Shown here one piece after another: positions 15,065 to 54,265 of a stretch of DNA of 54,266 nt. The notes under the pieces were generated by a model that was not told where the DNA came from, made no database searches, and saw only the letters and a list, made by a program, of their open reading frames with translations. Each line of letters begins with the position of its first letter. The first letter of the stretch is position 1. Origin of the DNA: Candidatus Thorarchaeota archaeon (GTDB lineage Archaea; Asgardarchaeota; Thorarchaeia; Thorarchaeales; Thorarchaeaceae); assembly GCA_019894665.1 (NCBI GenBank), contig JAGXOC010000005.1, positions 6,724 through 60,989 on the forward strand, given 5' to 3'. A program made the position numbers and the translations under genes.

Positions 15065-15688
15065 CTATTGTTTGCAGTATCTGAACGTACATCGCTTGTC
15101 ACCAGACGCAATGGTCTCATGACGAGTAAACCCTATCCAGCTCTCAATGACGTCTGCTAGGATGTTTTCATAATCACAGAGTATAGGTCCCAACTCAGGT
15201 TTACCTGCCTCTCGAAGGATATCAAAATAGAGGCATTTCTGAATGTCGAAACCGAAGCATCCCTCCTCCTGGTCGACCTCTACAACTTGAAAATGTTCGT
15301 CGTTGTAGTTCGCTTCGTTGCCCTTTCGTGCCCATTCGACAAACGCTTCCCATGGATTGACAGACTGCTCGAGCGCTGCTACTTCAGCCTTGAAGAAATC
15401 CTGAAGCATTGCCCTGTAAATGGAAATTACGGTTTCTTTAAGCTCATTGAAGGAGGCTCTGACTTCACACATCACATCATCCAATGCCATCACGAAGAGT
15501 GAGTTGACACCGTGCCTTTTTGCGATTGGATCTCTCAGCATATTCTCATAATTGTTGTAATGGATCTTGAACTGTCGGGTGAATAGCTTGTGCAATGGTC
15601 CTCCCTTATCGCCAAACTGTTTATTCAATTCTTGGAGGGTCAACTGGGAAAAGTAATCAATTAATTGCTGAATTGGATCTTCGGCCAT
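15065..15688 (-). CDS. L-2-amino-thiazoline-4-carboxylic acid hydrolase / V4R-like protein
   Basis: FDIQKCLY...ELGPILCDYE...RxxTIAxGxxxCxFRY pattern. Confidence 0.75.
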   Translation of the reverse strand: MAEDPIQQLIDYFSQLTLQELNKQFGDKGGPLHKLFTRQFKIHYNNYENMLRDPIAKRHGVNSLFVMALDDVMCEVRASFNELKETVISIYRAMLQDFFKAEVAALEQSVNPWEAFVEWARKGNEANYNDEHFQVVEVDQEEGCFGFDIQKCLYFDILREAGKPELGPILCDYENILADVIESWIGFTRHETIASGDKRCTFRYCKQ

Positions 15689-15835
15689 TGTGAAATCACG
15701 TTTTCTGAACTTGTGATGTTGCACAGGCATTTTGAAACTATTGGTATGCTTGTCTATGCGGTCTATTGCGGATTTCATTCACTTGAGTAGTAACAATATG
15801 TGACTCCCTTTTGTGACCCTAAGAAGTGGCTCCGC

Positions 15836-20211: not shown

Positions 20212-22257
20212 TTGGAGCGAACTACATTGAGTCCACCCAACACATCCAAGCCTAAGAAGAACGACAAGCCCAAGGCACCCCGTACTCCATCCCCTGAACC
20301 AGCTATGACTGAATCAGGAGATATCAAACAGGGTACGATTGCAAAATTCATGAGAAAGCGAACTCAGCTTGTGGGTTTTGAAACTGGACTCAACAAGCAT
20401 ACACAATATTCGATCGAGTTTCTGGACAATGCGATTGACGCCCTAGAGAGTTGGTGGTGGAAATCAAAGAAACGACCACGGCTTCAGGATAAATTAGATC
20501 TGAAATTGGTTGAAGAAGTTCGCGCTAAACTTGAGGAAGGTCAAATTGATACTATCGCAATTAGCAAACAGCTTGAACGAGATATCAAAGCTGGGAAAGA
20601 AGTTGAGACAACCCCAAGGCGCAAGGAAACTATTGAGGAACGAATCACAGAGTTCAGAAAATTTCTGATGCCTCTACGATCATTATTGTCAAAGAGAGAG
20701 CCTCTTGTGGTTATGGAGCTTAAAGAAGTTCAAATGCCCGACCTTGTTTCTATCGATGATGAAGAAGGATTCAAGGTGTATGAATTCACCTGTTTTGATA
20801 CCGGTGTGGGTATGGTTCCATCTGACCTTGAGAAATTTGGGATATACCTTGCTTCTAGTAAGTCTGAGAAACTTAGACAAACACGTGGGAGTCAAGGTTT
20901 TGGTGCACCCTCTGCATTCAGTGATGCACAGAACACTACTGGAAAACCAATCTTCACCGTATCAAAGAGATTTACATCGGCTGATGCAACTGTCACGAAC
21001 TTCTACACAACCACCGCCAACACAAAGGATTATGTGGGCGGACCTGTTGACATGGACCTCCCATTTAATCATGGGACATACATCAGATTGTATTATCTGA
21101 ACATCCAATACAGACGGGGATATGCCGATATTTATGCTGAAATGGCTTCTCTTCTAAACTCTCATGTGACAATCATCTTCATCGACCCGTACGGGAAAGT
21201 TCACATCTTTCCTCGAAGAGTGATTGGATTCCCTGATGAGCCAAAGTATGCTCAACCACACCCTGCGAGTATCAGAATCGGCGAGTTCCAAGATTTGCTA
21301 CGAGAAACCGGAGAATCCGAATTAAGAGGGTTCCTCACCAAGGCATTTTGTCGACTCAGCTCGAACAGAGCAAAGACGATTGTTTCAAACGCTAGTAAAG
21401 ACCTTCGACGGAGACATCTGGATGATCTCAAAATGACGACTCCTACAGATTCTTTATCCAAGACTGAGGTGGAACTACTTTACCGATCCTTTTCAAACGA
21501 GGATTATATTGCACCTCCTACTGACACAGTCGTTCCTGTTGGTGAAGAGGTGTTTGAGCAAACAATCCAGCTGGCATATAATCCAGATTTTGCCACTGCT
21601 GTCACTAGAAAGCCCACCTCAGGAAAAGGCCTCTCTTTTGCAGTAGAGGTATGTATTGCCTATGGTGGTGAAATAAAACCTGCTTCATCTGCACCAATGG
21701 TTCTTTGGCGGTTTGTGAACCGTGTACCTAAATTGCGAGATAACAGCGATTGCGCGACTTGGAAAGCAGCGGCTTCTGTAAACTGGAAGAACTACAAATT
21801 ACCAACCTTTGATAATGGAATTCCTCGTGGTCCCTTGATGGTGTTTATTCATGTTGCGGGTGCATATGTTCACGTGATGTTCAAGGGTCAAAGTAAACAA
21901 GCTCTTGCAGAAGATGAAGTGCTTCTGAGGGAGATCAAACTTGCTCTTGAGGATGCAGGTCGAAGGTTTAGACGATTCATTACAAGACGCGAAACCGCAC
22001 GAAGGAAAGCTAAGCGTGCAGGAATTCTAGCGATGTACGCAGACCAGTTTGCACAGAGTCTCATCACCATCGCAAACGATGGAAGAAAGAAACCACTCTT
22101 TGATGCTGAAACAATTGCAAGCAAAATACGGGATTCGATAACAGGATTTGAGACCGTAGAGGATCAAGAGGAAACTGAGGCTGATGGCATCGGTTCGGAT
22201 CTCGTTGCCGATATGCCTCTTGATGATGAAGTTGTTGAAGAAGGTGAGCTTGAATGA
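20212..22257 (+). CDS. top6B: DNA topoisomerase VI subunit B
   Basis: GHKL motifs EFLDNAIDA, DTGVG and RGSQGFG; H2TH region; RFVNRVP and FKGQSKQA transducer motifs; 4-nt overlap with top6A. Confidence 0.93.
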   Translation: MERTTLSPPNTSKPKKNDKPKAPRTPSPEPAMTESGDIKQGTIAKFMRKRTQLVGFETGLNKHTQYSIEFLDNAIDALESWWWKSKKRPRLQDKLDLKLVEEVRAKLEEGQIDTIAISKQLERDIKAGKEVETTPRRKETIEERITEFRKFLMPLRSLLSKREPLVVMELKEVQMPDLVSIDDEEGFKVYEFTCFDTGVGMVPSDLEKFGIYLASSKSEKLRQTRGSQGFGAPSAFSDAQNTTGKPIFTVSKRFTSADATVTNFYTTTANTKDYVGGPVDMDLPFNHGTYIRLYYLNIQYRRGYADIYAEMASLLNSHVTIIFIDPYGKVHIFPRRVIGFPDEPKYAQPHPASIRIGEFQDLLRETGESELRGFLTKAFCRLSSNRAKTIVSNASKDLRRRHLDDLKMTTPTDSLSKTEVELLYRSFSNEDYIAPPTDTVVPVGEEVFEQTIQLAYNPDFATAVTRKPTSGKGLSFAVEVCIAYGGEIKPASSAPMVLWRFVNRVPKLRDNSDCATWKAAASVNWKNYKLPTFDNGIPRGPLMVFIHVAGAYVHVMFKGQSKQALAEDEVLLREIKLALEDAGRRFRRFITRRETARRKAKRAGILAMYADQFAQSLITIANDGRKKPLFDAETIASKIRDSITGFETVEDQEETEADGIGSDLVADMPLDDEVVEEGELE

Positions 22258-24401
22258 GCCGCAAGAAAACGAAGAAGAAACAGGAGACTGTTCAAGCAAC
22301 TCTTGGTGAGGCTATGGTTGACTCAAAATCTAAGAAGCCAACAAAGAAAAAGCCCGCTAGTAAGCCCAAGAAGACGACCACTAAGAAAAAAGCATCTACT
22401 AAGAAAATAACAACTGCAAAGAAGGAAGCACCAGCAAAGAAGAAACCAACTAAAAAGAAGAGTCCTAGTAAGAAGAAAACACCTCCTAAGAAGAAAGAGG
22501 TTCCTGCTGCTCCAGAAAGTGCATTTAGTTTGAAGGAACTCCCTGGTGTAGGACCGAAATTAGAGGAGAAGCTCCGGAAGGCAAAATATGAAACCGTTGA
22601 GAAGATATCCCGCGCTAGATCAATATCTATAGCGAAGAAAGTGGAGGGACTTAGTAAAGCTGGTGCAAAGAACCTCGTAGATGCTGCAAAGGACTTGGTT
22701 AAGAAAGGCGAGACTGCTGCAGAGCCTTCTGAACCTCAGCCTGAAACAGATGAAGAAATTCGACCTCCGAAGATTTCATTGACCGATGTTCCAGGTTTAG
22801 GATCTAAGTTAGCTCTTTCCATGACACGTGCTGGTTATGATTCCGTTGCCCGAATTGCACGAGCTTCACCCAGAAATGTCGCACAGAAAGTTGACGGTCT
22901 AAGTACTGCAAAAGCCGTGTCGATTGTGAACGCTGCTAAGGATTTGATTCACAATCAGGAAATGGCACAGTTAACTGGAGAACCTATTATTGTAACATCT
23001 GCAAAAACAACAACTGATGCTAAAACACCACCAAAGGACGAAGAGCCAGTGAAAGAGAAGAAAACGCTGAAAAAACCTACAACTAAGAAAGCACCCACGA
23101 AAGCAGCTCCAAAAGGAAAAGCTCCTGCCAAGAAGAAACGTACTAAGAAACTCAAACCCCCTCCAAAAAGAACAAAACCTAAAGCAATTCGTAAGGAATC
23201 CGGTTTGCCTGTTCCTAAAGCTGTGGTAGAATTAGCAGTTGAATTGAAGGAAAAATGGTATACGGCAGATAAGAAGGCGCAAGCCCTCATTGATAGTGGA
23301 GAGATCGATGAATCTCTGGTTGAAACCGTAGAAGTTGTTTCACTAGCCGTTGACGATACAACGGAAAGGATTGTAGATACCGCACTAGATATTCTCAATG
23401 AAACCATGGTGAGCGGGAGACCTGCCTTTGAAATTCCAAGCAGGTCCGGTGATAATATTGTTTGGGATGAGATTCGCGACCTATTGCTTCTAGGAATGAG
23501 AACTATCTCTCGTCCATACCATTCACTTGCATCGGTTGTAGATGCCACCAGAACTGCTCGAGTTATGGAGATTGTATTCAACCTTCTGAAAGCTAACTTA
23601 CATGCAACCAAACGTGAAGTCTACTATAGTGATGTTAACCTGTTCAGAGAACAAAAGTACAGTGACAAGATCATCGAAGATGTCGCCTCTATGATTAAGA
23701 CTACTCGCGATAGCATTCACGTTGTTGCTTCTGCTCGTGGTTCCGCCATGGGTCGTGTTACTATACGAGATGGCGGTGATCTAATTGACCTCACTAAGAT
23801 GGGCACCGGTGGATGGGCTGTAACGCCATTCCTGGATCAACTTGAGATTGTAGAGAGCGATGCTGAATTCATTATACTGTCGGAAAAAGACGCAGCAGTT
23901 ATGCGACTTGCTGAAGCCAAGTATTGGAATCGCCAGCCTTGCATTGTATTAACAGGTAAGGGTTCAGGTGACATTGCAACAAGAGCCTTCCTCAAGATGC
24001 TTGTCAAGGAGCTTGAGATTCCTGCCTTTGCACTGGTCGACTCTGATCCTTATGGGCACTACATCTATTCTGTATTCCTCAGAGGTAGCAAGCGACTTAG
24101 CTATGAGTCACCATTCATTGCAACCCCCGACCTGAAACTATTGGGTGTGTTGAGTCGTGACTTGGATGAGTACAAGATTCCAAAGGCAGTCCGTATTCCT
24201 ATGCAGCCTACTGACATCAAACGTGTCAAGGATATGCTAAAGGAGCCATTTGTTAGACGGAACAAACCCTGGGTGGAAGACTTGGAGCTGATGCTAAAGC
24301 TCAAGGAGAAAGCAGAGATTCAGGCCTTTGCCAGCCACAGCTTTGAGTATCTCACAGATGAATATATTCCGCGCAAGCTTGAGACAGGTGATTGGATCTA
24401 G
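22254..24401 (+). CDS. top6A: DNA topoisomerase VI subunit A (Spo11 family) with long Lys-rich/HhH N-terminal extension
   Basis: TKREVYY catalytic Tyr motif, Toprim EKDA and DSDPYG, KAEIQA. Confidence 0.95.
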   Translation: MSRKKTKKKQETVQATLGEAMVDSKSKKPTKKKPASKPKKTTTKKKASTKKITTAKKEAPAKKKPTKKKSPSKKKTPPKKKEVPAAPESAFSLKELPGVGPKLEEKLRKAKYETVEKISRARSISIAKKVEGLSKAGAKNLVDAAKDLVKKGETAAEPSEPQPETDEEIRPPKISLTDVPGLGSKLALSMTRAGYDSVARIARASPRNVAQKVDGLSTAKAVSIVNAAKDLIHNQEMAQLTGEPIIVTSAKTTTDAKTPPKDEEPVKEKKTLKKPTTKKAPTKAAPKGKAPAKKKRTKKLKPPPKRTKPKAIRKESGLPVPKAVVELAVELKEKWYTADKKAQALIDSGEIDESLVETVEVVSLAVDDTTERIVDTALDILNETMVSGRPAFEIPSRSGDNIVWDEIRDLLLLGMRTISRPYHSLASVVDATRTARVMEIVFNLLKANLHATKREVYYSDVNLFREQKYSDKIIEDVASMIKTTRDSIHVVASARGSAMGRVTIRDGGDLIDLTKMGTGGWAVTPFLDQLEIVESDAEFIILSEKDAAVMRLAEAKYWNRQPCIVLTGKGSGDIATRAFLKMLVKELEIPAFALVDSDPYGHYIYSVFLRGSKRLSYESPFIATPDLKLLGVLSRDLDEYKIPKAVRIPMQPTDIKRVKDMLKEPFVRRNKPWVEDLELMLKLKEKAEIQAFASHSFEYLTDEYIPRKLETGDWI

Positions 24402-32459: not shown

Positions 32460-33059
32460 TCAGACGCCTAGCTTGAATGGTTTTGGTGGTTGCGATCCTG
32501 ACATTGGATCATGGGGACCTGCTTCCGCTTGTTTGGCAATCGCTCTCTGAACAAGATCGGTGAAGAGAGTGTTAACATTCTCACCTGTCTTGGCTGACGT
32601 TTCATAATGCAGGACGTCCAACCATTGAGTGACCATCGTGCCGGCTTCTGGAGGAACCAGTCTGTCCTCACGGTCGATCTTGTTGGCTACGACCGCAACT
32701 ACGGCGTTAGGACACACCGTGATAAACTTGGTGAACCACTCTCCAAGATCCAAAAACGTCTGAGGCCGGGTCACATCATATACAATAATGGCCATTGTAG
32801 CGCCTGCCATATACCTGCGTCTAAGTTCGTTATAGGAGGGCTGACCTGCGAGATCCCAAAGCACAACTCGAGCTGTAACTTTGCTTCCACTTGGCAAAAC
32901 CGTGTTTATGGTCTTCAAAGCAAATGTAGTTCCAATAGTAGCAATATAGCGTTCGCTGAAACTGTCCTCCGTGTATCTCTTAATACAACTAGTCTTGCCG
33001 ACTGCCCCATTTCCTAGGGCAACCAATTTGAACATATGACTAGCGTCCTCTGTTGACAT
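32460..33059 (-). CDS. Rab-like small GTPase
   Basis: GNGAVGKTS, ATIG, WDLAGQ, NKID and ETSAK (G1-G5). Confidence 0.93.
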   Translation of the reverse strand: MSTEDASHMFKLVALGNGAVGKTSCIKRYTEDSFSERYIATIGTTFALKTINTVLPSGSKVTARVVLWDLAGQPSYNELRRRYMAGATMAIIVYDVTRPQTFLDLGEWFTKFITVCPNAVVAVVANKIDREDRLVPPEAGTMVTQWLDVLHYETSAKTGENVNTLFTDLVQRAIAKQAEAGPHDPMSGSQPPKPFKLGV

Positions 33060-34434: not shown

Positions 34435-35043
34435 TCACATCAGAGGACCTTTGCTCTCTGAAAGTGCCTTTTCTAGTACAATCTCAGCAATGCGAGTAAA
34501 CACGTTATCAACCGCATCGCCAGTCTTTGCCGAAGTCTCGAAATATTCCGCTTGGAACCAATCGCGCAGCATCATGCCGGGCTCATGAGGGACCATTCTC
34601 TTATCTAATAGATCCACCTTGTTAGCACTGATTAAAACCGGTGAAGCAGGACAAACTTCTCTGAATGATTCAAACCAGTTGTTCATCGCCATGAACGTTT
34701 CAGGACGAGTGACATCATACACAACAATGGCTGCTGAAGCGCCTTTCATGAATTGTCTGCGAAGTTCTCGGTAGGTCGATTGACCTCCCATGTCCCACAC
34801 ATTCAAGCGAACCATACGAACGGTACCATCACTGCCAGTCACATTGATGTCCTTTGTAGCAAAGGTTGTTCCAATGGTCTGTTTGTACTCCTCATCAAAA
34901 GCGTTCTCAGTGTATCTCCTCACAAGCGACGTTTTACCCACGCCTGCCTCGCCTAGCAAAACCATTCGAAACTTGTATCCTTCGAACCCATCGGACGCAT
35001 CTGTGTCAGATTTGGTTTCTGAACTATCGTTTCTCTGAGTCAT
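34435..35043 (-). CDS. Rab-like small GTPase (paralogue)
   Basis: GEAGVGKTS, QTIG, WDMGGQ, NKVD and ETSAK. Confidence 0.93.
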   Translation of the reverse strand: MTQRNDSSETKSDTDASDGFEGYKFRMVLLGEAGVGKTSLVRRYTENAFDEEYKQTIGTTFATKDINVTGSDGTVRMVRLNVWDMGGQSTYRELRRQFMKGASAAIVVYDVTRPETFMAMNNWFESFREVCPASPVLISANKVDLLDKRMVPHEPGMMLRDWFQAEYFETSAKTGDAVDNVFTRIAEIVLEKALSESKGPLM

Positions 35044-45636: not shown

Positions 45637-45702
45637 CCGAGTTCAGAATCATTCTATTTCGGGTGACATTACCATTGGTAGCGTCTGCCCATTTTTCTTT
45701 TT
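45637..45702 (+). terminator. Hairpin(s) plus T-tract after ssb
   Basis: GGGTGACATTACC/GGTAGCGTCTGCCC imperfect stem followed by TTTTTCTTTTT. Confidence 0.5.
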
Positions 45703-45950
45703 CATTTCAGACTTTCAGCAAGTAAGTCTACAACATCCACAACACGTATCGAGCTGTTAATCTGTTCTGCACCTGCGATGAGATTATGCTCACAGAATGG
45801 ACAAACAGTAGCGATTACTTCAGCATCAATTTCTTCTGCACTCTTCACTCTGTCCTCAGCAATCTTCTTGGACAATTCAACGTCATAAGAACGCAGACCT
45901 CCACCTGCACCGCAGCACATTGCAGCCTCTCTGGTAGTTTCCATTGCCAC
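45702..45950 (-). pseudogene. C-terminal fragment of a CCG-domain (HdrB/D, GlpC-like) Fe-S oxidoreductase
   Basis: CCGAGGG and TVCPFC present, but the upstream HDxC part is absent; in-frame TGA immediately before the GTG. Confidence 0.65.
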
Positions 45951-45967: not shown

Positions 45968-46294
45968 CTAGAAAATGTGTCTTATCTTCATTAAATCGGA
46001 TGTTGACCCTTTCACCTTTAACTTCCGTTTGAAGAGCGCTGAGGTTGCACTCATTTCTTCGAGGAAAAGCTTTCGAATTGTTACTTCATCACTCTGAATT
46101 CTCATGTCTGGATTTTCTAACAGTCCTTCATGAACTGTGATATTGTTGTCCTTGACAACAAAGTGATATTCCGATCCTTCCTTCAAGGTAAGTTGTGCTG
46201 TTCGTTCCCATCCCTCGATGGCATCTTTAGTCTCTTCTCGTTCAAGTCCAATTGCGATTCGTTCTCGCATAAGTTTTAGCAGGTCTTGGGTCAT
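45968..46294 (-). CDS. SCP2 sterol-binding/lipid-transfer domain protein
   Basis: PDxxI..D...LF..A.F..KLKVKG...L pattern. Confidence 0.85.
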   Translation of the reverse strand: MTQDLLKLMRERIAIGLEREETKDAIEGWERTAQLTLKEGSEYHFVVKDNNITVHEGLLENPDMRIQSDEVTIRKLFLEEMSATSALFKRKLKVKGSTSDLMKIRHIF

Positions 46295-46376
46295 CTCTTA
46301 GCACTCCAATGTCCACGAGCAGGCTAAGGGCTAGATTTAGTTGTTTCCTTTCTGAACCGGTGATGTTCTAGATAAT

Positions 46377-46649
46377 TTATTCATCCCATTTTAATACTTC
46401 AATAAATTCAATTCCAACTCTATGCTCTCCATCAGGAAAATCAAAGGTGTTAAGTTTCACTTTGATTCTTCTCCCGCACACACCGACCATGTACATTGTT
46501 AAATGAACAGGGTCATACTCCTCAAGCACTTCTCTCAGTTTGAATATTTTCTTGTTTCCAGCATTGTTAAGGGCAAACTTCTCAAGTTCACCGAACTTTT
46601 TCTTTTCAATTGCTTTTACTAGTTTCTCTTTATCATATCCTTCTATCAT
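46377..46649 (-). CDS. Hypothetical protein (90 aa)
   Basis: ATGA overlap with the eda stop suggests translational coupling; no recognised motif. Confidence 0.55.
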   Translation of the reverse strand: MIEGYDKEKLVKAIEKKKFGELEKFALNNAGNKKIFKLREVLEEYDPVHLTMYMVGVCGRRIKVKLNTFDFPDGEHRVGIEFIEVLKWDE

Positions 46650-47344
46650 TCTAGTCGTATCTCCTTACCACTTGTGATTTTGAGGAAGCAATCCTCACTT
46701 CTGTATGCCTTTACAATATCAAGGAATTTTCTGACGTTCTCTGTAATCACTTCAAACCTACCTTCCTTGATTGCATTCTTGTCGGTAATGGCTCCACCTA
46801 CCCCAAGCGCATAGGCACCTGCTTCAAGCATAGGTCCTGCTGTGTCAAGATTCACGCCGCCGGTTGGAACAAGTGGAATCTGTGGTAACGGACCTCTGAT
46901 AGCTTTTAGATATGTAGCTCCCCCCACCGTGCCACAGGGGAAAACCTTCACAGCATCTGCTCCCAAAGTGTATGCATTATAGATCTCTGTAGGAGTGAGT
47001 GCTCCGGGGATGATAGGTTTGGAATGCTTAATGGCAGTTTCAATCAGGTCTCGCGAATAATTCGGACTCACGATGAACGCACTACCAGCTTTGATTACTT
47101 CTTCTGCCATTTTCCCATCAACAACTGTACCTGTTCCAATCAGGACCTTGTCTCCAAATTGCTCGACGAGCTGTTTCACGACATCGATTGCACCTGGGAC
47201 GCTCATGGTCACCTCAATAATGTTTACGTCTCCTTCTAGAAAGGCATCAGCCACATTGAATGCAATATCTGCAGACTCGACCCGGATTATCGGAATGAGA
47301 CCGGTGTCATAGATCAGTTTCATCGCTTTTTCTTTTGTCCACAT
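46646..47344 (-). CDS. eda: KDPG/KHG aldolase
   Basis: IIR, IEVT, IGTGTV, VSPN, GALTPTE, VKVFP (Schiff-base Lys) and VPTGGV motifs. Confidence 0.94.
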   Translation of the reverse strand: MWTKEKAMKLIYDTGLIPIIRVESADIAFNVADAFLEGDVNIIEVTMSVPGAIDVVKQLVEQFGDKVLIGTGTVVDGKMAEEVIKAGSAFIVSPNYSRDLIETAIKHSKPIIPGALTPTEIYNAYTLGADAVKVFPCGTVGGATYLKAIRGPLPQIPLVPTGGVNLDTAGPMLEAGAYALGVGGAITDKNAIKEGRFEVITENVRKFLDIVKAYRSEDCFLKITSGKEIRLE

Positions 47345-47350
47345 CTTGGC

Positions 47351-48346
47351 TCACCTATCGATACGAAGGCCTCTCTCGCGGCCCTTGATTAACTTCTCAA
47401 CCTCTGACTTGTAAACGAAGGCTAGATCTCCAGGAACCGAGTGTTTCAATGCGGAGAATGCTGAACCAAAATCAACTGCTTTCTGCAGGTCCTTCAACTC
47501 AAGATATCCATAGATGAATCCTGCACTACAGGAGTCACCTCCGCCTAGACGGTCCACAACTTCCACATCATAGACTGGACTCTTGTAGACTTTACCATCA
47601 GAATATGCAAAGACTGACCATTTATTCAGCAAGACTGAAGGAGTTTCTCTGAGTGTGATTACAACGACCTCGAATCCAAACTTGTCTATTAGTTTGGCAG
47701 CCACATCTTCGTAGTCCTTTCCTTCAATACCGTAGACTACCTTCGTGTCTTCTTCAGTAGTGATTAATATATCAATGAACTCAGATGCTGGCTCTGTGAA
47801 CTTCTGGGCTTCCTTGGGAGTCCATAGTTTTCCTCGGTAGTTGACGTCGTAAGATATCTTTGCACCTTGCTCCTTTGCGACTCTGAGTGCTTCGCTTGTT
47901 GCATCTGCACAACTGGAACTTAGCGCAGGAGTGATCCCACTGGTGTGGAACACTTTGGTCTCTTTCAGGACCTTCTTCCAGTCAACTTCTCCCGGTTTTA
48001 TCCTACTGATAGCGGACTCCTTGCGATCATAGATCACGCGATTAGTTCTAGGAGCCGCTCCAAACTCAACAAAGTAGACTCCACATCGACTGTCTGGATC
48101 CCAGAGAATGTGGGATGTATCAACTCCATGCTCTCGAGCCTTGTTTCGGATGAAATGTCCGATGGAGTTGTCTCCTAGCTTGGTGACATATGCTGAGTTC
48201 AACTCTAATCTCGCACAGGCCACTGCTACGTTCATCTCTGCACCACCTGCATGAGCATTGAAACTCTCAGTCTGTTCAAATCGCTTAAAGTCTGGAGGGG
48301 AGAGGCGAAGCATCACTTCTCCAAAGGTAACAACGTCATAACCCAT
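47351..48346 (-). CDS. kdgK: PfkB-family 2-keto-3-deoxygluconate kinase-like sugar kinase
   Basis: FGEVMLRLSP, GGAExNVA, SGITPALS, DVNYRxKLW and VDRLGGGDS motifs. Confidence 0.9.
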   Translation of the reverse strand: MGYDVVTFGEVMLRLSPPDFKRFEQTESFNAHAGGAEMNVAVACARLELNSAYVTKLGDNSIGHFIRNKAREHGVDTSHILWDPDSRCGVYFVEFGAAPRTNRVIYDRKESAISRIKPGEVDWKKVLKETKVFHTSGITPALSSSCADATSEALRVAKEQGAKISYDVNYRGKLWTPKEAQKFTEPASEFIDILITTEEDTKVVYGIEGKDYEDVAAKLIDKFGFEVVVITLRETPSVLLNKWSVFAYSDGKVYKSPVYDVEVVDRLGGGDSCSAGFIYGYLELKDLQKAVDFGSAFSALKHSVPGDLAFVYKSEVEKLIKGRERGLRIDR

Positions 48347-48420
48347 CTGTCACAACTCAACGTGTTTAACAAGTGAATACATACGCTTCGAAATGTTAAA
48401 TCTACCGTTGAGACTGGTCT

Positions 48421-50733
48421 TCATGAGAATTCAGTTCGTGCTATCACTTCATCTTGCACGAATGGATCTAGCTCAATGAAATATGCACTGTATCCCGCGA
48501 CCCGGACAATCAGGTCTCTGTGTTGTAGGGGGTTCACTTTGGCATCTTCTAGGGTCGCTCGTGATACCACGTTGTATTGAACGTGGAATCCCCCCATACC
48601 AAAGTACGTGTCAACCATGCTGATGAATTTCTTTCTTCTCGATTCAGTATCAAAAAAGTCGGGTGTGAATTTCATGTTGTAGAGGGTGCCATTGTAGCAC
48701 AAGGCATGATCAAGCCTAGCAACTGATTTCATGGCTGCAGTAGGTCCGTTAATATCCCTATTCTGAGTGGGTGAAACGCCATCTGAAATCATGTAACCCG
48801 CTTTGCGGCCATCTGGTGTTGCTCCAAGGACTTCTCCCTGTGGAATATACATGGACACGGAGAAGAGAGCTCCATGATATGGACCGTTCCTTGTTGTCAT
48901 CCTACTCTGAATCGAATTACAAAAGGCTCTCCCGGTATCTCTAGCAAGAAAGTCCACTCTCTCAATGTCATTACCATACTTTGATGAATCGTTCTCGAAT
49001 TTGACCCTAAGTTCTTCATGGTCCTTATAGTCGTTGGCGAGAATCTGAAGGAATTTATCCATCGATATCTCGTTCTCTTCAAAGACAAATTTTCGGAGAA
49101 CTTCAAGCGAATCCGCTACGATTGCGATTCCGACTCCCATGATTCCTCCTGAGTTGTAGAGAACTCCACCGTCCTGCATGGTCTTTCCAGACTCATTGCA
49201 CCCTTCAAGAAGAGAGGAGATGAACGGTGTTGGTGTGTGCTCTGATATGATGCCTGCTGCAATCCTATCTGCGCTTGTCAACATCTCAATGGTGTAGTCG
49301 ATCTGTTCCTCGAAAGATAGCCATAGGTCATCAAATGCTTTGAAACTTCGAGGGTCTCCGGTTTCCCTCCCAACCAGTTCACTTGTCTTTGGGTCCCTTC
49401 CATTGTTCAATGTAACCTCGAGTATCTTTGGTAGGTTGACATACCCAATATTCTGTCGAGGATCTGACTTACCACCAATGATTGGTTCAACACATCCGAG
49501 TACTGAATACTCATGGACGTCTGATGGGTCGGTACCCTTCTCAAGCATCATTGGAATAATCTCATCGTCATTGAACAGACCCGGGATTCCAAGACCCTTT
49601 GAGATCACATCGACTACGTGAAGTTTGATGTCTTCAGGTGTGTTCTTGTGCCATCGGAAAGAAACACTCGGTTGAGTTACTCTGATGTTTGCAGTAGCTT
49701 GGAGGATCAATCTTGTGAGGTCATTAGATGCATCTGTCCCATCTGCATTCTGCCCCCCAATAGTGAGGTTTTGGAACATCGGATGGCCTGCAAACGCAAT
49801 GCTGTAGTACTCATTTCTAATCTTGATTAGTGAGGTCAGTTTGACCCAAAGCACCTCAAGAAGTTCCAATGCATACTCCTTGCCTATCCCTCCACTCTTA
49901 ATGTTTGAATCATAGAATGGATAGACGTATTGATCAAACCTGCCTGTAGATATGGAATGTCCATTAGACTCGGTCTGGATCAGTAAATGGATAAACCAGA
50001 ACGACTGGAGTGCCTCCTGGAATGACTTTGCTGGTTCAGCTGGAACTTTCTGACAAATGCGCGCTATCTCTAGTAACTCACCTTTTCGGATTTCATCCGA
50101 TTCCTTTTCTGCTAACTCACCTGCTAATTGGGAGAAACGTTCTGCGAATCTGATGACTGCAGTTATCTCGGTTCTGACAGCCTCATAATAATCGCCATCT
50201 TTCCCCTCTATCTCATCAAGGATTCCCCCTAAACCATTCCTCAGGACTTTCTCATAGTCTACAATGACATGTCCAATCCCTGTTCCTGGAGCACCAATCG
50301 TGAATAAGCCTGCTTTGGATGCTTGAATTGATTTCTTCGGCATAGCTGTTCCAGCAATTTCTGCTGTGCTCTTGTCCTTCCAGAAGGTGAAGACTTCGCG
50401 GAGATTTTTCTTGTCTTCATTACTGATTGAGAACCGCTCAGTCCTTCTCTTGTCAAACTTATCGAGCTCTTCCTCAATCCATATCCAGCTATACTCTGGA
50501 AACACCTGACAAGAACGAGGAGTGGGCCCCATGTTACCAACGATCAATTCCTCCGGCTCTATTCTGATTGTTATATTATCCAGAACATGAGCAAAAGCAC
50601 CAGCGAAGCGTAGCATTGCAGGCTCAGACCAATTCTCCTTAACGTACTCAGTGAAAAGGACAGCTCGCTCCGATGAGATCGTAGGCTCGGAATCAAGCAT
50701 CATTTGCTTGAGTCGTTTACTCCGGGATGTCAT
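48421..50733 (-). CDS. Glycyl radical enzyme (PFL2/diol-dehydratase-like eliminase)
   Basis: RVAGYSAYF glycyl loop, GCVEP Cys loop, ESNGHSISxGRFDQ and ATPDGR motifs. Confidence 0.95.
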   Translation of the reverse strand: MTSRSKRLKQMMLDSEPTISSERAVLFTEYVKENWSEPAMLRFAGAFAHVLDNITIRIEPEELIVGNMGPTPRSCQVFPEYSWIWIEEELDKFDKRRTERFSISNEDKKNLREVFTFWKDKSTAEIAGTAMPKKSIQASKAGLFTIGAPGTGIGHVIVDYEKVLRNGLGGILDEIEGKDGDYYEAVRTEITAVIRFAERFSQLAGELAEKESDEIRKGELLEIARICQKVPAEPAKSFQEALQSFWFIHLLIQTESNGHSISTGRFDQYVYPFYDSNIKSGGIGKEYALELLEVLWVKLTSLIKIRNEYYSIAFAGHPMFQNLTIGGQNADGTDASNDLTRLILQATANIRVTQPSVSFRWHKNTPEDIKLHVVDVISKGLGIPGLFNDDEIIPMMLEKGTDPSDVHEYSVLGCVEPIIGGKSDPRQNIGYVNLPKILEVTLNNGRDPKTSELVGRETGDPRSFKAFDDLWLSFEEQIDYTIEMLTSADRIAAGIISEHTPTPFISSLLEGCNESGKTMQDGGVLYNSGGIMGVGIAIVADSLEVLRKFVFEENEISMDKFLQILANDYKDHEELRVKFENDSSKYGNDIERVDFLARDTGRAFCNSIQSRMTTRNGPYHGALFSVSMYIPQGEVLGATPDGRKAGYMISDGVSPTQNRDINGPTAAMKSVARLDHALCYNGTLYNMKFTPDFFDTESRRKKFISMVDTYFGMGGFHVQYNVVSRATLEDAKVNPLQHRDLIVRVAGYSAYFIELDPFVQDEVIARTEFS

Positions 50734-50782
50734 CTCTTACCCTACAGCTTTTTCCATTCATTACTGTTCGCATCTGACATAA

Positions 50783-51952
50783 CTAAGGCAGTAATTTCGG
50801 TAGATAGCTATCCAGTATGCTCAGGGCTTCATTGATTCTCTCAGTCGAAACAGCATAACAGAGTCTGAGGAATCCTTCTCCGTATTCTCCAAAGGCTGTC
50901 CCATGTATAGTGACCACTTTTGTGTCCTTCAGGATTTTATGAACAAGATCGAATGATTTCATACCATAGGCTGACACGTCTGGAAATGCGTAAAATGCAC
51001 CTCCAGGAGGTTGCATATCAACACCCTCAATGTCATCGAGTCCTTTTGTGATCAGGTCCCGTCGCTTCCGAAATGTCTGAAGCATTTCATCAACACAGTC
51101 TTGAGGACCAATAGCTGCGGCCTCTGCTGCTTTTTGTGAAATTGAAGTTGGCATTGCTATGATGTGTTCTTGCAATTTAGTCATTGCACTGATGATTTTG
51201 CTAGAACCCGTTGCTACAGCGATACGCCATCCTGTCATTGCATATGTTTTTGAGAATGAGAAAATTGAAACTGTTCTCTCTTTCATTCCAGGGAGTGAAC
51301 CTATGAATAGGGGGTCTTCATCTACATATCTGAATTTCTCATAAGCCTCATCAGCAATCACATAGATGTCGTTCTCGATGCACAATTCTGCAATTCTTTT
51401 CAATTCTTTATTGGTAATGACACCACCCGTGGGGTTGTTCGGTGAGTTGAGGACAATCATCTTTGTCTTGGGTGTTATCTTCCTTTCAACGTCTTCTGCA
51501 GTGAAACCGAATCTGTGCTCCTTCTTCAATTGAACTGGAACTGGGACTCCATATGCGAGTTTGATTTGAGCAAAGTGGCTCACAAAACCCGGGTCTGGGT
51601 AAATCACTTCATCACCTGGATTCACAAGGACCAAGTTTGCGAGAACGAGAGCCCCCATCCCTCCTGCTGTGCAGACCAGTTCAGATTCAGGGTCCGCAAC
51701 GATGTTATTGTCGCGCTTCAACTTCTTTGCAAGCGCTTCTCTGACCTCAATGTAACCCGCATTGTGGGTGTAAGTTGTGAAGCCATCATCGATTGCTTTC
51801 TTTGCAGCTTCCTTGATGTGCTCAGGTGTGTCAAAATCAGGGATGCCAACAGTCATGTCATAGACATCAGTTCTTCCGATGATCTTGTTGAAGATCTTTC
51901 GGATTTCGCTAGCAGGAACGTCAATGTTTCTCTCAGCAAGCATCAGTACCAC
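50783..51952 (-). CDS. PLP-dependent class I/II aminotransferase
   Basis: GxPDFDTP, NSPNNPTG, DEAY, SFSKTYAMTGWR motifs. Confidence 0.94.
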   Translation of the reverse strand: MVLMLAERNIDVPASEIRKIFNKIIGRTDVYDMTVGIPDFDTPEHIKEAAKKAIDDGFTTYTHNAGYIEVREALAKKLKRDNNIVADPESELVCTAGGMGALVLANLVLVNPGDEVIYPDPGFVSHFAQIKLAYGVPVPVQLKKEHRFGFTAEDVERKITPKTKMIVLNSPNNPTGGVITNKELKRIAELCIENDIYVIADEAYEKFRYVDEDPLFIGSLPGMKERTVSIFSFSKTYAMTGWRIAVATGSSKIISAMTKLQEHIIAMPTSISQKAAEAAAIGPQDCVDEMLQTFRKRRDLITKGLDDIEGVDMQPPGGAFYAFPDVSAYGMKSFDLVHKILKDTKVVTIHGTAFGEYGEGFLRLCYAVSTERINEALSILDSYLPKLLP

Positions 51953-52097
51953 CTGTCTGAATCTGCTGGATAATCCCCAGTTAAATAACCTCTCGAATGG
52001 ACCACTTTTGTTTAAGAAATTACATAACCAGTTCTCAGAGGAGTTTTAAGATACATTTCTATTCCTCTGTACAACTCTCAACGGATAGTGTTGTGTT

Positions 52098-52571
52098 ATG
52101 TCAGATCCAAGTGCAGATGATGTTCGAAGAGCCAACATGAATACACTCGCTGCCACACATGTAATCTATGTAGAAGCAATTCGTAGATTGATGGGCGATG
52201 AAGGATTGAAAGCCATCGGTGAGGTTAATCGGCTCCATGGTCTAAAACTGGGCAAAGATGGTATTGAACAGGGCTCTCTGCGGAAAGGAGACCTTCGTTC
52301 TATTTTCGACTTCTTTGATGGTGCTCATCCATTCTTTGGATTTGAACTATCGATAGGCACCTCGACTGACAAGAGCTTCAACCTAAAGGTGACGTATTGC
52401 CCATGGATAGAGTCATTCAAGACTCAAGATGCTGGATCGGACATTTGCGAACATGTGACCAAGATAGATGAGGGAATAGGTCAGGTTGTAGACCCTGATG
52501 TATCAATGTCAATTCCAAAATGTATGATGCGTGGCGATGATCACTGCATCTATCGTTGGGAGAAGGAGTGA
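52098..52571 (+). CDS. L-2-amino-thiazoline-4-carboxylic acid hydrolase / V4R-like small-ligand-binding protein
   Basis: CPW...C...D...C.MRGDDxCxY pattern. Confidence 0.7.
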   Translation: MSDPSADDVRRANMNTLAATHVIYVEAIRRLMGDEGLKAIGEVNRLHGLKLGKDGIEQGSLRKGDLRSIFDFFDGAHPFFGFELSIGTSTDKSFNLKVTYCPWIESFKTQDAGSDICEHVTKIDEGIGQVVDPDVSMSIPKCMMRGDDHCIYRWEKE

Positions 52572-52576
52572 ACCCT

Positions 52577-53245
52577 ATGACAACTGATAGGAACGCCATA
52601 ATTGATCGAACAATGAAACTCTATGTAGCTGCACTTTCTGACGCCGCAGATGAGATCGGTCTTGGAACAGTGTGTATGGACCGAGGTATAGTACCTCTTA
52701 CCAAGAATAAACGAATGGCCGGATTTGCGAGAACTGGAAAACTGACCCGTTCTCCTGCTACTCGACCCTATGATGAGAAGCAACTGGACATGTTCATGAG
52801 CCTTGGAACTGAGGCCGTGGACGGTGATTTACTCGTCATTGATATGGCTGGTGCAACTGATTGCTCTGCTTGGGGTCAGATATTGACAAAGATTGGAATA
52901 TCAAAGGGAGTCCGAGGTGCGGTGGTTGATGGTACTTCAAGAGACATCCATGATATCGATAAGACGAATTTCACAGTTTTTGCTCGTGGTCGACATCCCG
53001 GCACCATGAGAGGTCGTTTAGACATGGAGTCTGTACAGAGTTCGATTACTTGTGGTGGTGTCACTGTTAATCCTGGCGACCTAATATTCGGGGATGATGA
53101 CGGAATCGTTGTGATTCCCGCTGATCGTATCGAAGAAGTTCTCACTCATGCAGAGGAAGTTGTAGCAACTGATGACTGGTGGTCTGAGAAACTAGATGAT
53201 GGTGAAGACCCCCACGATCTTCACAAAGAGAAACCTATCCCTTGA
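52577..53245 (+). CDS. RraA/HMG aldolase family protein
   Basis: LSDA, AWG.L, G..GAVVDGxxRD, V.PGDLIFGDDDGIVVIP motifs. Confidence 0.9.
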   Translation: MTTDRNAIIDRTMKLYVAALSDAADEIGLGTVCMDRGIVPLTKNKRMAGFARTGKLTRSPATRPYDEKQLDMFMSLGTEAVDGDLLVIDMAGATDCSAWGQILTKIGISKGVRGAVVDGTSRDIHDIDKTNFTVFARGRHPGTMRGRLDMESVQSSITCGGVTVNPGDLIFGDDDGIVVIPADRIEEVLTHAEEVVATDDWWSEKLDDGEDPHDLHKEKPIP

Positions 53246-53251
53246 TTCTCT

Positions 53252-54265
53252 TCATTTCAACGGATAGACGCCTCTCTTAGTGGCGTAATCATACAGCTCT
53301 AGGATCTTCTCCGGAGTAGACTCTGGTTGAATGTTATGTGCAGGAGCGAGGATGTAGCCTCCACCATGTGCCAGTGCATTTATTCGGGTGTCAACCTCTA
53401 CACGTACATCTTCAAGTGATCCTTGTGCAGCCATAGCATGCTGTAGGTCTATTCCTCCATGGAATGTCAGTCTATCCCCATAATTCTCCTTGAGCTCAGC
53501 TGATTCCATACCCTTTGCTAGAGGTTGGATTGGATTCAGGATGTCCACATCCACTTCAATCAGGTCCGGTATCAATTGTTCAATAGCTCCACATGAGTGA
53601 TAGAGAATCTTCACATGCGGTGCTCTCCGGTGGATGTCACTGTAGACCTTCTTGTGTCTATGTTTCACTAGAGACCTGTAAATCCTTGGATTGATGAGAA
53701 GTCCATCCTGATGACCTAAGTCATCACCGACTTGCACAATGTCTAGATATTCACCTACTTCATCCAATAGAACCCGGTTCATCTCAATTGCCAGTTCCAT
53801 GCTTTTGTCCATCATAGCCTCTGCTAGGTCTGGACGTCTTAGGAGGTCAACTAGGAACTTGTCAAAACCTCTCATATAATGAGCAGCTATCTCGAAAACT
53901 CCCCATGGTCCTCCTACCATACCCACAACTGCATAGTCAGTCTCCTTGTGAAGATGCTTTGCCCAATCTCGGACACCTTCCATTCTTGAGGGGTCATCTG
54001 GGTCAATCCACTCGAACTCTTTCACTTGTTCTACTTCTGTGAACTCAGCCCAAGGATAGTAGGTGACCTCGTCATATCCACCAATCAGTTTCATTCCGCA
54101 TTTGAACTCTGTTTCAGTAGACCCATCTGGAAGAGGTTGAGGTACAAAGCCTGCAGCAGGATTCATGTATACTCGCCTGAAGTCCACATTCAACCGTTTC
54201 AGCAGCTCTTCAGATGTTTTCCATGAAGCCATAATTCCCCATTCTTGGGTCTCGGGCGCTGTTAT
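53252..54265 (-). CDS. Uroporphyrinogen decarboxylase / MtaA-CmuA superfamily protein (5' partial)
   Basis: GDDLG.Q, YHSCG, LNPIQ, FHGGIDxQ and GGYILAPAHNIQ motifs; frame open to window edge. Confidence 0.85.
   Translation of the reverse strand: MTAPETQEWGIMASWKTSEELLKRLNVDFRRVYMNPAAGFVPQPLPDGSTETEFKCGMKLIGGYDEVTYYPWAEFTEVEQVKEFEWIDPDDPSRMEGVRDWAKHLHKETDYAVVGMVGGPWGVFEIAAHYMRGFDKFLVDLLRRPDLAEAMMDKSMELAIEMNRVLLDEVGEYLDIVQVGDDLGHQDGLLINPRIYRSLVKHRHKKVYSDIHRRAPHVKILYHSCGAIEQLIPDLIEVDVDILNPIQPLAKGMESAELKENYGDRLTFHGGIDLQHAMAAQGSLEDVRVEVDTRINALAHGGGYILAPAHNIQPESTPEKILELYDYATKRGVYPLK

Follow-up and report, generated by a model that had tools for sequence, protein, structure and literature searches.

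The DNA analysed here is a window of 54,266 nucleotides (nt) from a Candidatus Thorarchaeota archaeon (assembly GCA_019894665.1), corresponding to positions 6724-60989 of contig C398, whose end is the right edge of the window. It contains a run of five genes in which a glycyl radical enzyme (GRE) is followed by a predicted 2-keto-3-deoxygluconate (KDG) kinase, KdgK, and a predicted 2-keto-3-deoxy-6-phosphogluconate (KDPG) aldolase, Eda. Since these three genes, hereafter the trio, are inherited and lost together, the GRE may make the substrate of KdgK and Eda by an undescribed radical reaction. A preliminary description, drawn up from the letters of this DNA alone, had recorded the co-oriented run, and our profile scans (Pfam and NCBIfam) of 53 open reading frames (ORFs) of the window agree with it: all five genes lie on the minus strand, separated by gaps of 49, 74, 6 and -4 nt, in the order given below (lengths in amino acids, aa).

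50783-51952, minus strand: aminotransferase (AT), 389 aa, class I (Aminotran_1_2 PF00155, 249.8 bits)
48421-50733, minus strand: GRE, 770 aa (PFL-like PF02901, 658.6 bits; Gly_radical PF01228, 113 bits)
47351-48346, minus strand: KdgK, 331 aa, predicted 2-keto-3-deoxygluconate kinase (PfkB PF00294, 156.5 bits)
46646-47344, minus strand: Eda, 232 aa, predicted class I KDPG/2-keto-4-hydroxyglutarate (KHG) aldolase (PF01081, 150.9 bits)
46377-46649, minus strand: orf90, 90 aa, without Pfam or NCBIfam match

Class and pocket of the glycyl radical enzyme

The protein has the hallmarks of its superfamily, namely a barrel domain of the pyruvate formate-lyase (PFL) type and a C-terminal glycine-radical domain with the R-V-x-G motif, here R-V-A-G-Y-S, which is invariant together with Gly747 in 120 of 120 clade members. 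When it is aligned with glycerol dehydratase (GD; 1r8w), C414-V-E416 corresponds to Cys433/Glu435, H155 to His164 and H259-S260 to His281-Ser282. Both marks of the eliminases that cleave C-O bonds are therefore present (the C-x-E on the Cys loop and the general acid at the position of GD His164), and the earlier assignment of a GCVE-type eliminase, made from the G-C-V-E motif, is strengthened by the His164 equivalent. A 2026 review attributes this CXE motif to each of the six GRE eliminases known to cleave C-O bonds (GD, propanediol dehydratase (PD), HpfG, HypD, HpyG and HpzG) and describes, for GD, that Glu435 deprotonates the C1 hydroxyl and that His164 protonates the departing hydroxyl (PMC13450708). 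Judged by its residues, the window enzyme would belong to the 1,2-eliminase (dehydratase) class and be oxygen-sensitive, in a clade that appears limited to one Thorarchaeia-type family.

Its best solved relatives are three diol dehydratases: 1r8w of Clostridium butyricum (682.7 bits, aligned end to end) and the PDs of Roseburia inulinivorans (5i2a, 637.7 bits) and Raoultella planticola (9rco, 609.5 bits), the latter being named a GRM3-type PD in the portion of the source that concerns it (PMC12756279). PflD (494.9 bits), YbiW (481.7 bits), MasD (286 bits) and the benzylsuccinate synthase (BSS) 4pkc (285 bits) follow. The sole GRE model passed is that of a broad subfamily, TIGR01774 (717 bits for a cut-off of 678). 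The NCBIfam equivalog cut-offs were not reached for HpfG (593/1000), HypD (575/1100), CutC (551/1050) or HpsG (528/1000), nor was that of the PFL equivalog TIGR01255 (151.8 bits vs 994.2).

The three solved diol dehydratases have in common an Asn-aromatic loop before the catalytic His, a W-H-D triad and Tyr640. At these sites the window GRE shows an A-P-(gap)-G-T loop, R-Q-N for W-H-D and Phe for Tyr640. With the C. butyricum enzyme (1r8w/1r9d) it shares the same Gly/Cys-x-Glu/His164/His-Ser set, so that the same reaction class, a radical 1,2-elimination of a hydroxyl, would be expected, but it departs from it by N156 to A, a Tyr-rich loop shorter by one residue, Y336 to H, Y339 to F, W445-H446-D447 to R-Q-N, Y640 to F and S642 to V. 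It is also, unlike GD, archaeal and without adjacent activase or 1,3-propanediol genes. F320 and V626, which occupy GD positions 339 and 642, are in the state found in both solved PDs; yet the window GRE has neither their W-H-D, their Tyr640 nor their N-Y-F-[YF] loop, and it falls outside their clade. GRE propanediol dehydratases typically sit with microcompartment shell and aldehyde-processing genes, and no shell or aldehyde-processing domain was found among the 53 window ORFs scanned. The pocket signature A148/F320/R426/N428/I429/F624/S625/V626/M628 is nearly invariant: among 120 clade members with 70% overall identity or more, 119-120 have it, residue 427 being Q, P or A. Apart from Cys433, Glu435 and His164, the roles of the GD pocket residues are those we presume. 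This conservation suggests that the clade shares a single specificity, with a distinctive pocket.

The PflD and YbiW enzymes of Escherichia coli provide a likeness of another kind, as they follow the pathway logic proposed here, in which a GRE converts a compound the size of a sugar into what an aldolase further down the pathway consumes; passages of the review mentioned above have them act on anhydro-hexitol phosphates (PMC13450708). PflD and the window GRE agree in the length of the loop that precedes the catalytic His, but their pocket residues differ. Their partner is an aldolase of the fructose-6-phosphate type and their substrate is already phosphorylated, whereas the partners here are KdgK and Eda.

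At 50% identity the whole clade forms one cluster (P0105, 73%), and the next proteins are 41-44% identical. A FastTree phylogeny was built from the query, a second GRE of the same genome (GRE2) and 143 representatives longer than 700 aa among 150 listed (782 trimmed columns, midpoint root); it is indicative only, as the characterised GREs including GD lie outside it. The clade is sister to P0121, P0123, P0146 and P0202 (support 0.98), and a clade of seven leaves that holds three W-H-D (PD-type) representatives and the representative nearest to HpfG excludes the query (support 0.99). Since one of 60 GRE representatives passed an equivalog cut-off (CutC; another came near that of HpfG, 974 vs 1000), the neighbouring clades are mostly uncharacterised. 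P0123 belongs to Synergistota, and homology search found a tier of 55-59% identity in Desulfobacterales. It is about 41% identical to the window GRE and shares A/F/F/R/N/S/V with it at pocket positions, but has Asn at the His164 position. A metagenome scan for P0123 returned 80 loci, of which four (L055-L058) were close and 76 contained distant GREs. These four have the order activase-GRE-GRE-activase plus an EamA transporter, with aminotransferases, a D-2-hydroxyacid dehydrogenase and amidohydrolases nearby; their second GRE is 34% identical to the window GRE, and none of the eight proteins has a named function. L055-L058 is thus an uncharacterised two-GRE system. The L055 aminotransferase, considered as an ortholog of the window AT, was discarded at 40% identity, and it brings no evidence for a conserved AT-GRE link.

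Kinase, aldolase and the joint inheritance of the trio

The best solved match of KdgK is the KDG kinase of Thermotoga maritima (2afb, 278.9 bits), and the KDG kinases of Thermus thermophilus and Sulfolobus match as well. Against the models for KDG/2-keto-3-deoxygalactonate kinases it scores 311.6 bits (cut-off 440), and against the fusion model 384 (cut-off 700). Alignment with these three KDG kinases shows Y-D-R-K and N-Y-R as conserved segments, whose Tyr and Arg presumably bind the substrate. KdgK is 73-96% identical across the family and is more conserved than the GRE. Eda passes TIGR01182 (183.1 bits vs 156.05) and has the KDPG aldolase of T. maritima (1wa3/1vlw, about 117 bits) as best natural solved match; the Lys of its K-x-F-P segment, presumably the Schiff-base lysine, aligns with that of a chain derived from T. 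maritima. By these similarities kinase and aldolase are probably of the KDG type. As in the classical KDG routes (Entner-Doudoroff, hexuronate, and the KdgK-Eda pair of the T. maritima TM0066/TM0067 type), the same downstream chemistry to pyruvate and triose phosphate would be expected; the difference lies upstream, where the classical routes obtain KDG from IlvD/Edd, UxuA, UxaA, UxaC or KduI and a GRE occupies the adjacent place here.

The last gene of the run, orf90, has relatives in 27 protein clusters (59-88% identity) in which every named entry is a Thor-type archaeon, and 26 of its columns are invariant, including F-P-D-G-E-x-R-V-G-I. No usable match to it was obtained in the protein atlas. 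It follows Eda in five of 41 related loci and, by its distribution, is best regarded as a conserved, lineage-specific accessory gene outside the core. The window Eda has 232 aa, and the alignments of most relatives end at about residue 216-218, reading through a stop there; the 4-nt overlap between Eda and orf90 is explained by this longer C-terminus.

Gene order was compared over 41 related loci (GRE identity 66-88%; matches covering at least 50% of the query), all of them from Thorarchaeota, Hermodarchaeota, Promethearchaeota or otherwise unplaced archaea. The GRE has KdgK after it in 36, Eda in 33 and AT before it in 32, and the RraA-like and UroD-like genes described below occur in 27 and 25, respectively. 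SCP2, CCG, SSB and INO1 genes are syntenic in the closer loci only; the UroD-to-Eda block stays together beyond the reach of general synteny. Five loci have no KdgK, and in three of them (L033, L046, L050) the sequence ends within about 540 bases after the GRE. The preliminary description had named two outcomes that would speak against it, the clustering of the enzyme with a characterised family of unrelated substrate, such as HypD, CutC or PD, and the lack of a conserved kdgK/eda linkage. Neither outcome was observed: by the models and tree representatives compared, the enzyme joins no characterised family, as it reaches no equivalog cut-off and lies outside the W-H-D/near-HpfG clade, and the linkage is conserved, with co-inheritance of the trio.

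This co-inheritance was surveyed in 400 genomes of the phylum, with GRE matches listed down to about E = 1e-151, a level at which fragments may escape. Among the matches listed, GREs of at least 64% identity occur only in one family (f1), and other families have only matches of 36-41%, of the GRE2 type. Matches to KdgK of at least 73% are confined to the same family; the others contain a paralog of 39-47%, and G397 has one match of 64%. With GRE presence again taken from the matches listed, 56 of the 86 genomes of the family have GRE, KdgK and Eda, 23 have none of the three and seven are partial. Contig ends bear on four of these seven: AT-GRE-KdgK is cut by one in G349, the GRE of G316 (L050) stands at one, G371 (L053) has a GRE fragment at a contig start, and in G390 the contig begins inside KdgK. 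The remaining three (G369, G379, G380) are genomes 62-74% complete. Eda has the same distribution as KdgK in every genus but g1, where it is off by one genome. Genera g2, g6, g9, g10, g12, g13 and g16 are mixed, from which repeated joint loss or gain of the trio follows. We attach no statistic to these counts, as related genomes are not independent. G315 shows the decay in progress: its GRE, on a separate contig, has three in-frame stops and its KdgK two, and an intact AT (62%) is directly followed by that KdgK and then by an Eda whose identity, varying with the span compared, is 55-63%. GRE, KdgK and Eda are thus inherited and lost together, and they decay jointly in G315.

Two further searches concerned the whole genome. 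A single glycyl-radical activase passes its model (TIGR02494, 323 bits vs a cut-off of 174.35). It lies on contig C99, unlinked to either GRE, and presumably serves the window enzyme. GRE2, on contig C394 beside ribosomal protein genes, has 788 aa, is 39% identical and reads C-V-T for C-V-E. In this genome, which is 90% complete, ILVD_EDD, UxuA, GD_AH (UxaA), UxaC and KduI gave no match, and control genomes were matched. The sole gene of the enolase superfamily (MR_MLE), on C409, scores best as a muconate cycloisomerase or an L-Ala-D/L-Glu epimerase (162-167 bits), far under the cut-offs for ManD, galactonate dehydratase and gluconate dehydratase. Its candidacy as a hidden gluconate dehydratase was rejected on these scores and on its place between ZPR1 and pyrophosphatase genes.

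Transcription units and neighbouring genes

Five further features lie between, upstream of or beside the genes of the run:

51980-51990, minus strand: TATA-box-like element, about 30 nt upstream of the AT start
48364-48402, minus strand: conserved element of the GRE-kdgK spacer, GATTTAACA, about 22 nt, then TGTTAAAC
52098-52571, plus strand: small protein of the ATC_hydrolase family, 157 aa (PF14196, 47.3 bits)
52556-53245, plus strand: RraA-like gene of the 4-hydroxy-4-methyl-2-oxoglutarate (HMG)/4-carboxy-4-hydroxy-2-oxoadipate (CHA) aldolase family (PF03737, 110.4 bits), divergent from the run
53252-54265, minus strand: UroD/MtaA-family gene, ORF of 326 aa open at the contig end (URO-D PF01208, 98.8 bits)

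The TATA box upstream of AT is strongly conserved as GGTTATATAAAC in the relatives and reads GGTTATTTAAC in the window, where it is unique. The AT-GRE spacer (49-68 nt) contains a conserved GAARAGTAAT-like stretch and no canonical TATA box; since AT has a strong one, AT and GRE are probably co-transcribed. In the spacer between GRE and kdgK, a conserved CGRCAGATTTAACAT at 48394-48402 is followed about 22 nt on by TGTTAAAC at 48364-48371, and the first half-site is kept in nearly all of 35 related spacers, including those of the most distant loci. This putative element is probably an internal promoter or operator for kdgK-eda. Its motif YAGATTTAACA was also tried as a regulon marker and rejected, as the genome has two copies (the reversed-pattern control has one), the second inside a 655-aa frame on C400. 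In some relatives (L026, L029) a stretch of T (T7 in L026) opens the spacer immediately behind the GRE stop; it could act as an archaeal terminator, fitting separate AT-GRE and kdgK-eda transcripts there. A metatranscriptome library (X9) contains contigs at least 99% identical to positions 49436-50005 (a 535-nt contig inside the GRE) and to positions 45989-46468 (from SCP2 to the 3' end of orf90). These contigs leave 24 of 30 cluster bins empty, which is not evidence of absent transcription; they give a weak hint of GRE expression, and DNA carry-over is possible.

The best solved matches of AT are 1gd9 and 1dju of Pyrococcus horikoshii (about 308 bits), and it looks like a general, broad aminotransferase of the Asp/aromatic type. 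Orthologs of it exist without the trio in G317, G326, G329 and G330, and at E <= 1e-110 none was found in two genomes that have the trio, G321 (whose contig ends in the GRE) and G354 (71% complete). Because AT persists in genomes without the trio, the amino-sugar acid that had been listed among possible substrates gains no support.

The preliminary description also placed a divergent pair beside the run. Its RraA-like member stands; the other, called V4R-like, corresponds to the 157-aa ORF and matches the ATC_hydrolase family, with MetOD1 at 23.0 bits (under its cut-off of 23.8) and no Pfam V4R model at E <= 0.001. This 157-aa gene is present in many, not all, related loci. A second member of the family in the window (15065-15778, minus strand, 237 aa, 71.7 bits) adjoins a 605-aa DUF362 protein, and the family seems to be expanded in the host. 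The RraA-like protein has as best solved match an uncharacterised protein (3k4i, 92.6 bits), followed by the CHA aldolase/oxaloacetate decarboxylase 3noj (62.2 bits). It mostly tracks the trio, being absent in six genomes that have it (G312, G315, G321, G324, G366, G391) and present without it in G367.

For the neighbouring gene described as UroD/MtaA-like, membership of the URO-D family was verified; MtaA models (NF004889) give 57-61 bits for a cut-off of 244. The window ORF of 326 aa is incomplete, given that full-length relatives have 376-377 aa and that the contig ends there. In no genus does the count of this gene differ from that of the trio by more than one genome; G312, G321 and G324 have it, and G315 does not. 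An H-S-C-G segment is invariant in 25 relatives, in which no second invariant Cys occurs; MtaA-type methyltransferases have H-x-C (...C) as their zinc signature. Another UroD-like copy (81% identical) lies at C414:206-1180 of the genome bin, and several sister genomes also have two. Likewise, contig C174:378-923 of the bin carries a second, partial KdgK copy (86% identical, residues 1-182). Such copies could come from strain heterogeneity in the bin or be paralogs.

Beyond UroD, locus L016 has a GlcD-like FAD oxidase and a CCG Fe-S subunit, and CCG-domain matches at a similar distance suggest the same GlcD/CCG pair in many other loci. A second pair follows SCP2 in L014 (7212-9771), with the GlcD-like gene split into 120 + 357 aa. 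In comparison, the window is without about 2.3 kb of this second pair, by deletion or assembly gap, and since it is missing while the trio is intact, the second pair is dispensable for the trio. After SCP2 the window retains, at 45702-45950 (minus strand), an 82-aa CCG-domain ORF, the 3' end left over from a 386-aa CCG/Fe-S gene. In the complete Thorarchaeota chromosome CP070658.1 (L054:5614-6687), a zinc-type alcohol dehydrogenase replaces the GlcD/CCG pair beside the UroD-like gene. It passes Glu_dehyd_C (49.3 bits vs 34.9) and could be a sugar dehydrogenase, a possible supplier of aldonate.

As for the host, the earlier suggestion of a probable Asgard archaeon is borne out by the archaeal sources of the 41 related loci and by the gene content of the window, where genes for Ras-family GTPases, Topo VI, RadA and a factor of the eRF1 type occur. 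Two genes for small GTPases of the Ras/Roc family (134 and 151 bits), which are typical Asgard eukaryote-like signature proteins, lie at 32460-33059 and 34435-35043 (minus strand) with a CBS-domain gene between them. The gene of Topo VI subunit A (22254-24401, plus strand, 715 aa) is long and has an N-terminal extension with helix-hairpin-helix domains, followed by the TP6A_N and Toprim domains.

A proposed radical route to 2-keto-3-deoxy acids and its alternatives

The trio is co-inherited and decays jointly, canonical dehydratases were not found, and the residues of an eliminase are in place; on these grounds we favour, tentatively and with somewhat less than even confidence, the view that the GRE is a radical 1,2-eliminase of new specificity which makes a 2-keto-3-deoxy acid for KdgK and Eda. 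In such a scheme, the activase encoded elsewhere in the genome would install the radical on Gly747, from which it would move to Cys414. The thiyl radical would then remove the hydrogen of a carbon that carries a hydroxyl in a sugar acid or close analogue, in the simplest case C2 of a hexonate; Glu416 would deprotonate the hydroxyl, and His155 would aid the departure of the substituent on C3 (a hydroxyl or another O-linked group). Return of the hydrogen would yield the 2-keto-3-deoxy acid, which KdgK would phosphorylate and Eda would cleave to pyruvate and glyceraldehyde-3-phosphate. The substrate, the order of the steps and the pairing of the C99 activase with this GRE are all what we infer. 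With greater reserve, we raise the possibility that this is the first glycyl-radical sugar-acid eliminase, replacing dehydratases of the Fe-S or enolase type and acting perhaps on an O-methylated sugar acid with the help of the UroD/MtaA-like protein.

Several points weigh against the proposal. The pocket is more hydrophobic than those of the diol dehydratases and, compared with GD, has fewer polar and aromatic residues (Y339 to F, Y640 to F, S642 to V, D447 to N); one would expect increased polarity if the substrate were a polyhydroxy acid, and the substitutions are not obviously suited to such a compound. The TATA box of AT and the TATA-like element of the spacer make it likely that AT-GRE and kdgK-eda form two units instead of one operon. 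AT is only loosely coupled, a neighbour and not an obligate part, the UroD-like and RraA-like genes travel with the trio without having a role in the scheme, and the cluster showed neither a transporter nor an enzyme that oxidises sugars. Among the loci without kdgK, L047 contains a GRE that seems intact, with unrelated genes after it, and L052, which is the GRE pseudogene of G315, is counted with it as an exception. The sister-clade loci L055-L058 have neither kdgK nor eda. The absence of KDG-forming enzymes rests on a genome that is 90% complete. Finally, the linkage is seen in a single family, with no independent replicate, and co-inheritance could reflect one genomic island and not a common chemistry. 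The earlier claim that the radical enzyme replaces the usual dehydratase therefore holds in part: the usual KDG dehydratases were not found, and the polarity of the pocket, the kdgK promoter and the restriction to one family weaken it.

It is possible, though in our opinion rather doubtful, that the GRE dehydrates small diols in a modified pocket, shares an island with kdgK-eda and does not make their substrate. It would act on a 1,2-propanediol-like compound or on a short anionic diol such as 3,4-dihydroxybutyrate, 2-keto-3-deoxy-pentonate or dihydroxypropanesulfonate. Indeed, the three best solved relatives are all small-diol dehydratases (683, 638 and 610 bits), F and V at 339/642 are the propanediol state with position 640 also F, and kdgK-eda appear to have their own promoter. 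Arg426, two residues before N428 and present in 119 of the 120 members, might anchor an anionic tail, if its orientation is as we suppose. Such an enzyme would nevertheless have to do without W-H-D, Tyr640 and the Asn-aromatic loop and stand outside the diol-dehydratase clade, with no aldehyde/alcohol dehydrogenase or microcompartment shell gene reported in the window, and the joint loss and decay of GRE, KdgK and Eda would be left unexplained.

A partnership of the GRE with the upstream AT on a hydroxy or keto acid derived from an amino acid, with kdgK-eda as a separate unit downstream by chance, seems to us unlikely. The probable co-transcription of AT and GRE across a spacer without TATA box is in its favour, as are the aminotransferases and D-2-hydroxyacid dehydrogenase near the tandem GREs of the sister clade and the GlcD-like/CCG 2-hydroxyacid oxidoreductases that flank the cluster in relatives. 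Yet AT, apparently of a general Asp/aromatic type and only 40% identical to the aminotransferase of the Synergistota locus, persists without the GRE in four genomes (G317, G326, G329, G330) and stays intact in G315 while GRE and KdgK decay. Conversely, the trio genomes G321 (contig end) and G354 (71% complete) have no AT match at the threshold, and the downstream GlcD/CCG pair is missing from the window, whose trio is intact.

More improbable still, the GRE could be a C-O lyase that expels an alkoxy group from a modified (e.g. O-methylated) sugar acid, the methyl being handled by the UroD/MtaA-like protein. A less polar pocket could suit a methoxy group, the UroD-family gene tracks the trio per genus within one genome, and H-x-C is invariant in its product; but that product has a single invariant Cys and 57-61 bits where MtaA models ask for 244, no corrinoid-binding protein is reported in the annotated flanks (L016, L054), and the leaving-group chemistry is purely conjectural. 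We give next to no credence to the database labels, by which the enzyme would be a PFL or a benzyl/alkylsuccinate synthase: although cluster members appear in their sources as 'formate C-acetyltransferase' or 'Benzylsuccinate synthase alpha subunit', and parts of one study read Hermodarchaeota GREs as Ass/Bss, with Thorarchaeota homologs coloured alike in its tree, and give two neighbouring Cys for PFL (PMC8163825), the window GRE has G-C-V-E with one Cys, the eliminase signature CXE, 151.8 bits vs 994 for TIGR01255, and 285 and 286 bits with BSS and MasD, far under the dehydratases.

We now return to the radical eliminase feeding KdgK and Eda. The preliminary description knew of no such GRE-fed Entner-Doudoroff-like route in archaea, and our literature search bears this out: in the full-text literature, with subscription journals and supplements outside it and papers judged mostly by title or abstract, we found none describing the route or a GRE-KdgK-Eda module, and none that combines 'glycyl radical' with 'gluconate dehydratase'. 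The parts of the 2026 review that treat the subject list no sugar-acid GRE, describe every PFL-like GRE of known function as bacterial and single out archaeal GREs as a gap (PMC13450708).

The clade described here is a concrete, testable archaeal case with a defined gene partnership. Annotation is affected, as its members are labelled formate acetyltransferase or benzylsuccinate synthase. Asgard GREs have been taken, in one study, as evidence for hydrocarbon degradation (PMC8163825); for this clade such a reading finds no support in the CXE motif or in the ranking of similarities. If the proposal is true, radical dehydration or β-elimination on a sugar acid would be added to the six known C-O-cleaving GRE eliminases, and Asgard archaea would possess a strictly anaerobic variant of sugar-acid catabolism. 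For Thorarchaeia, this would be a radical entry into Entner-Doudoroff-type catabolism and the first function assigned to an archaeal PFL-like GRE.

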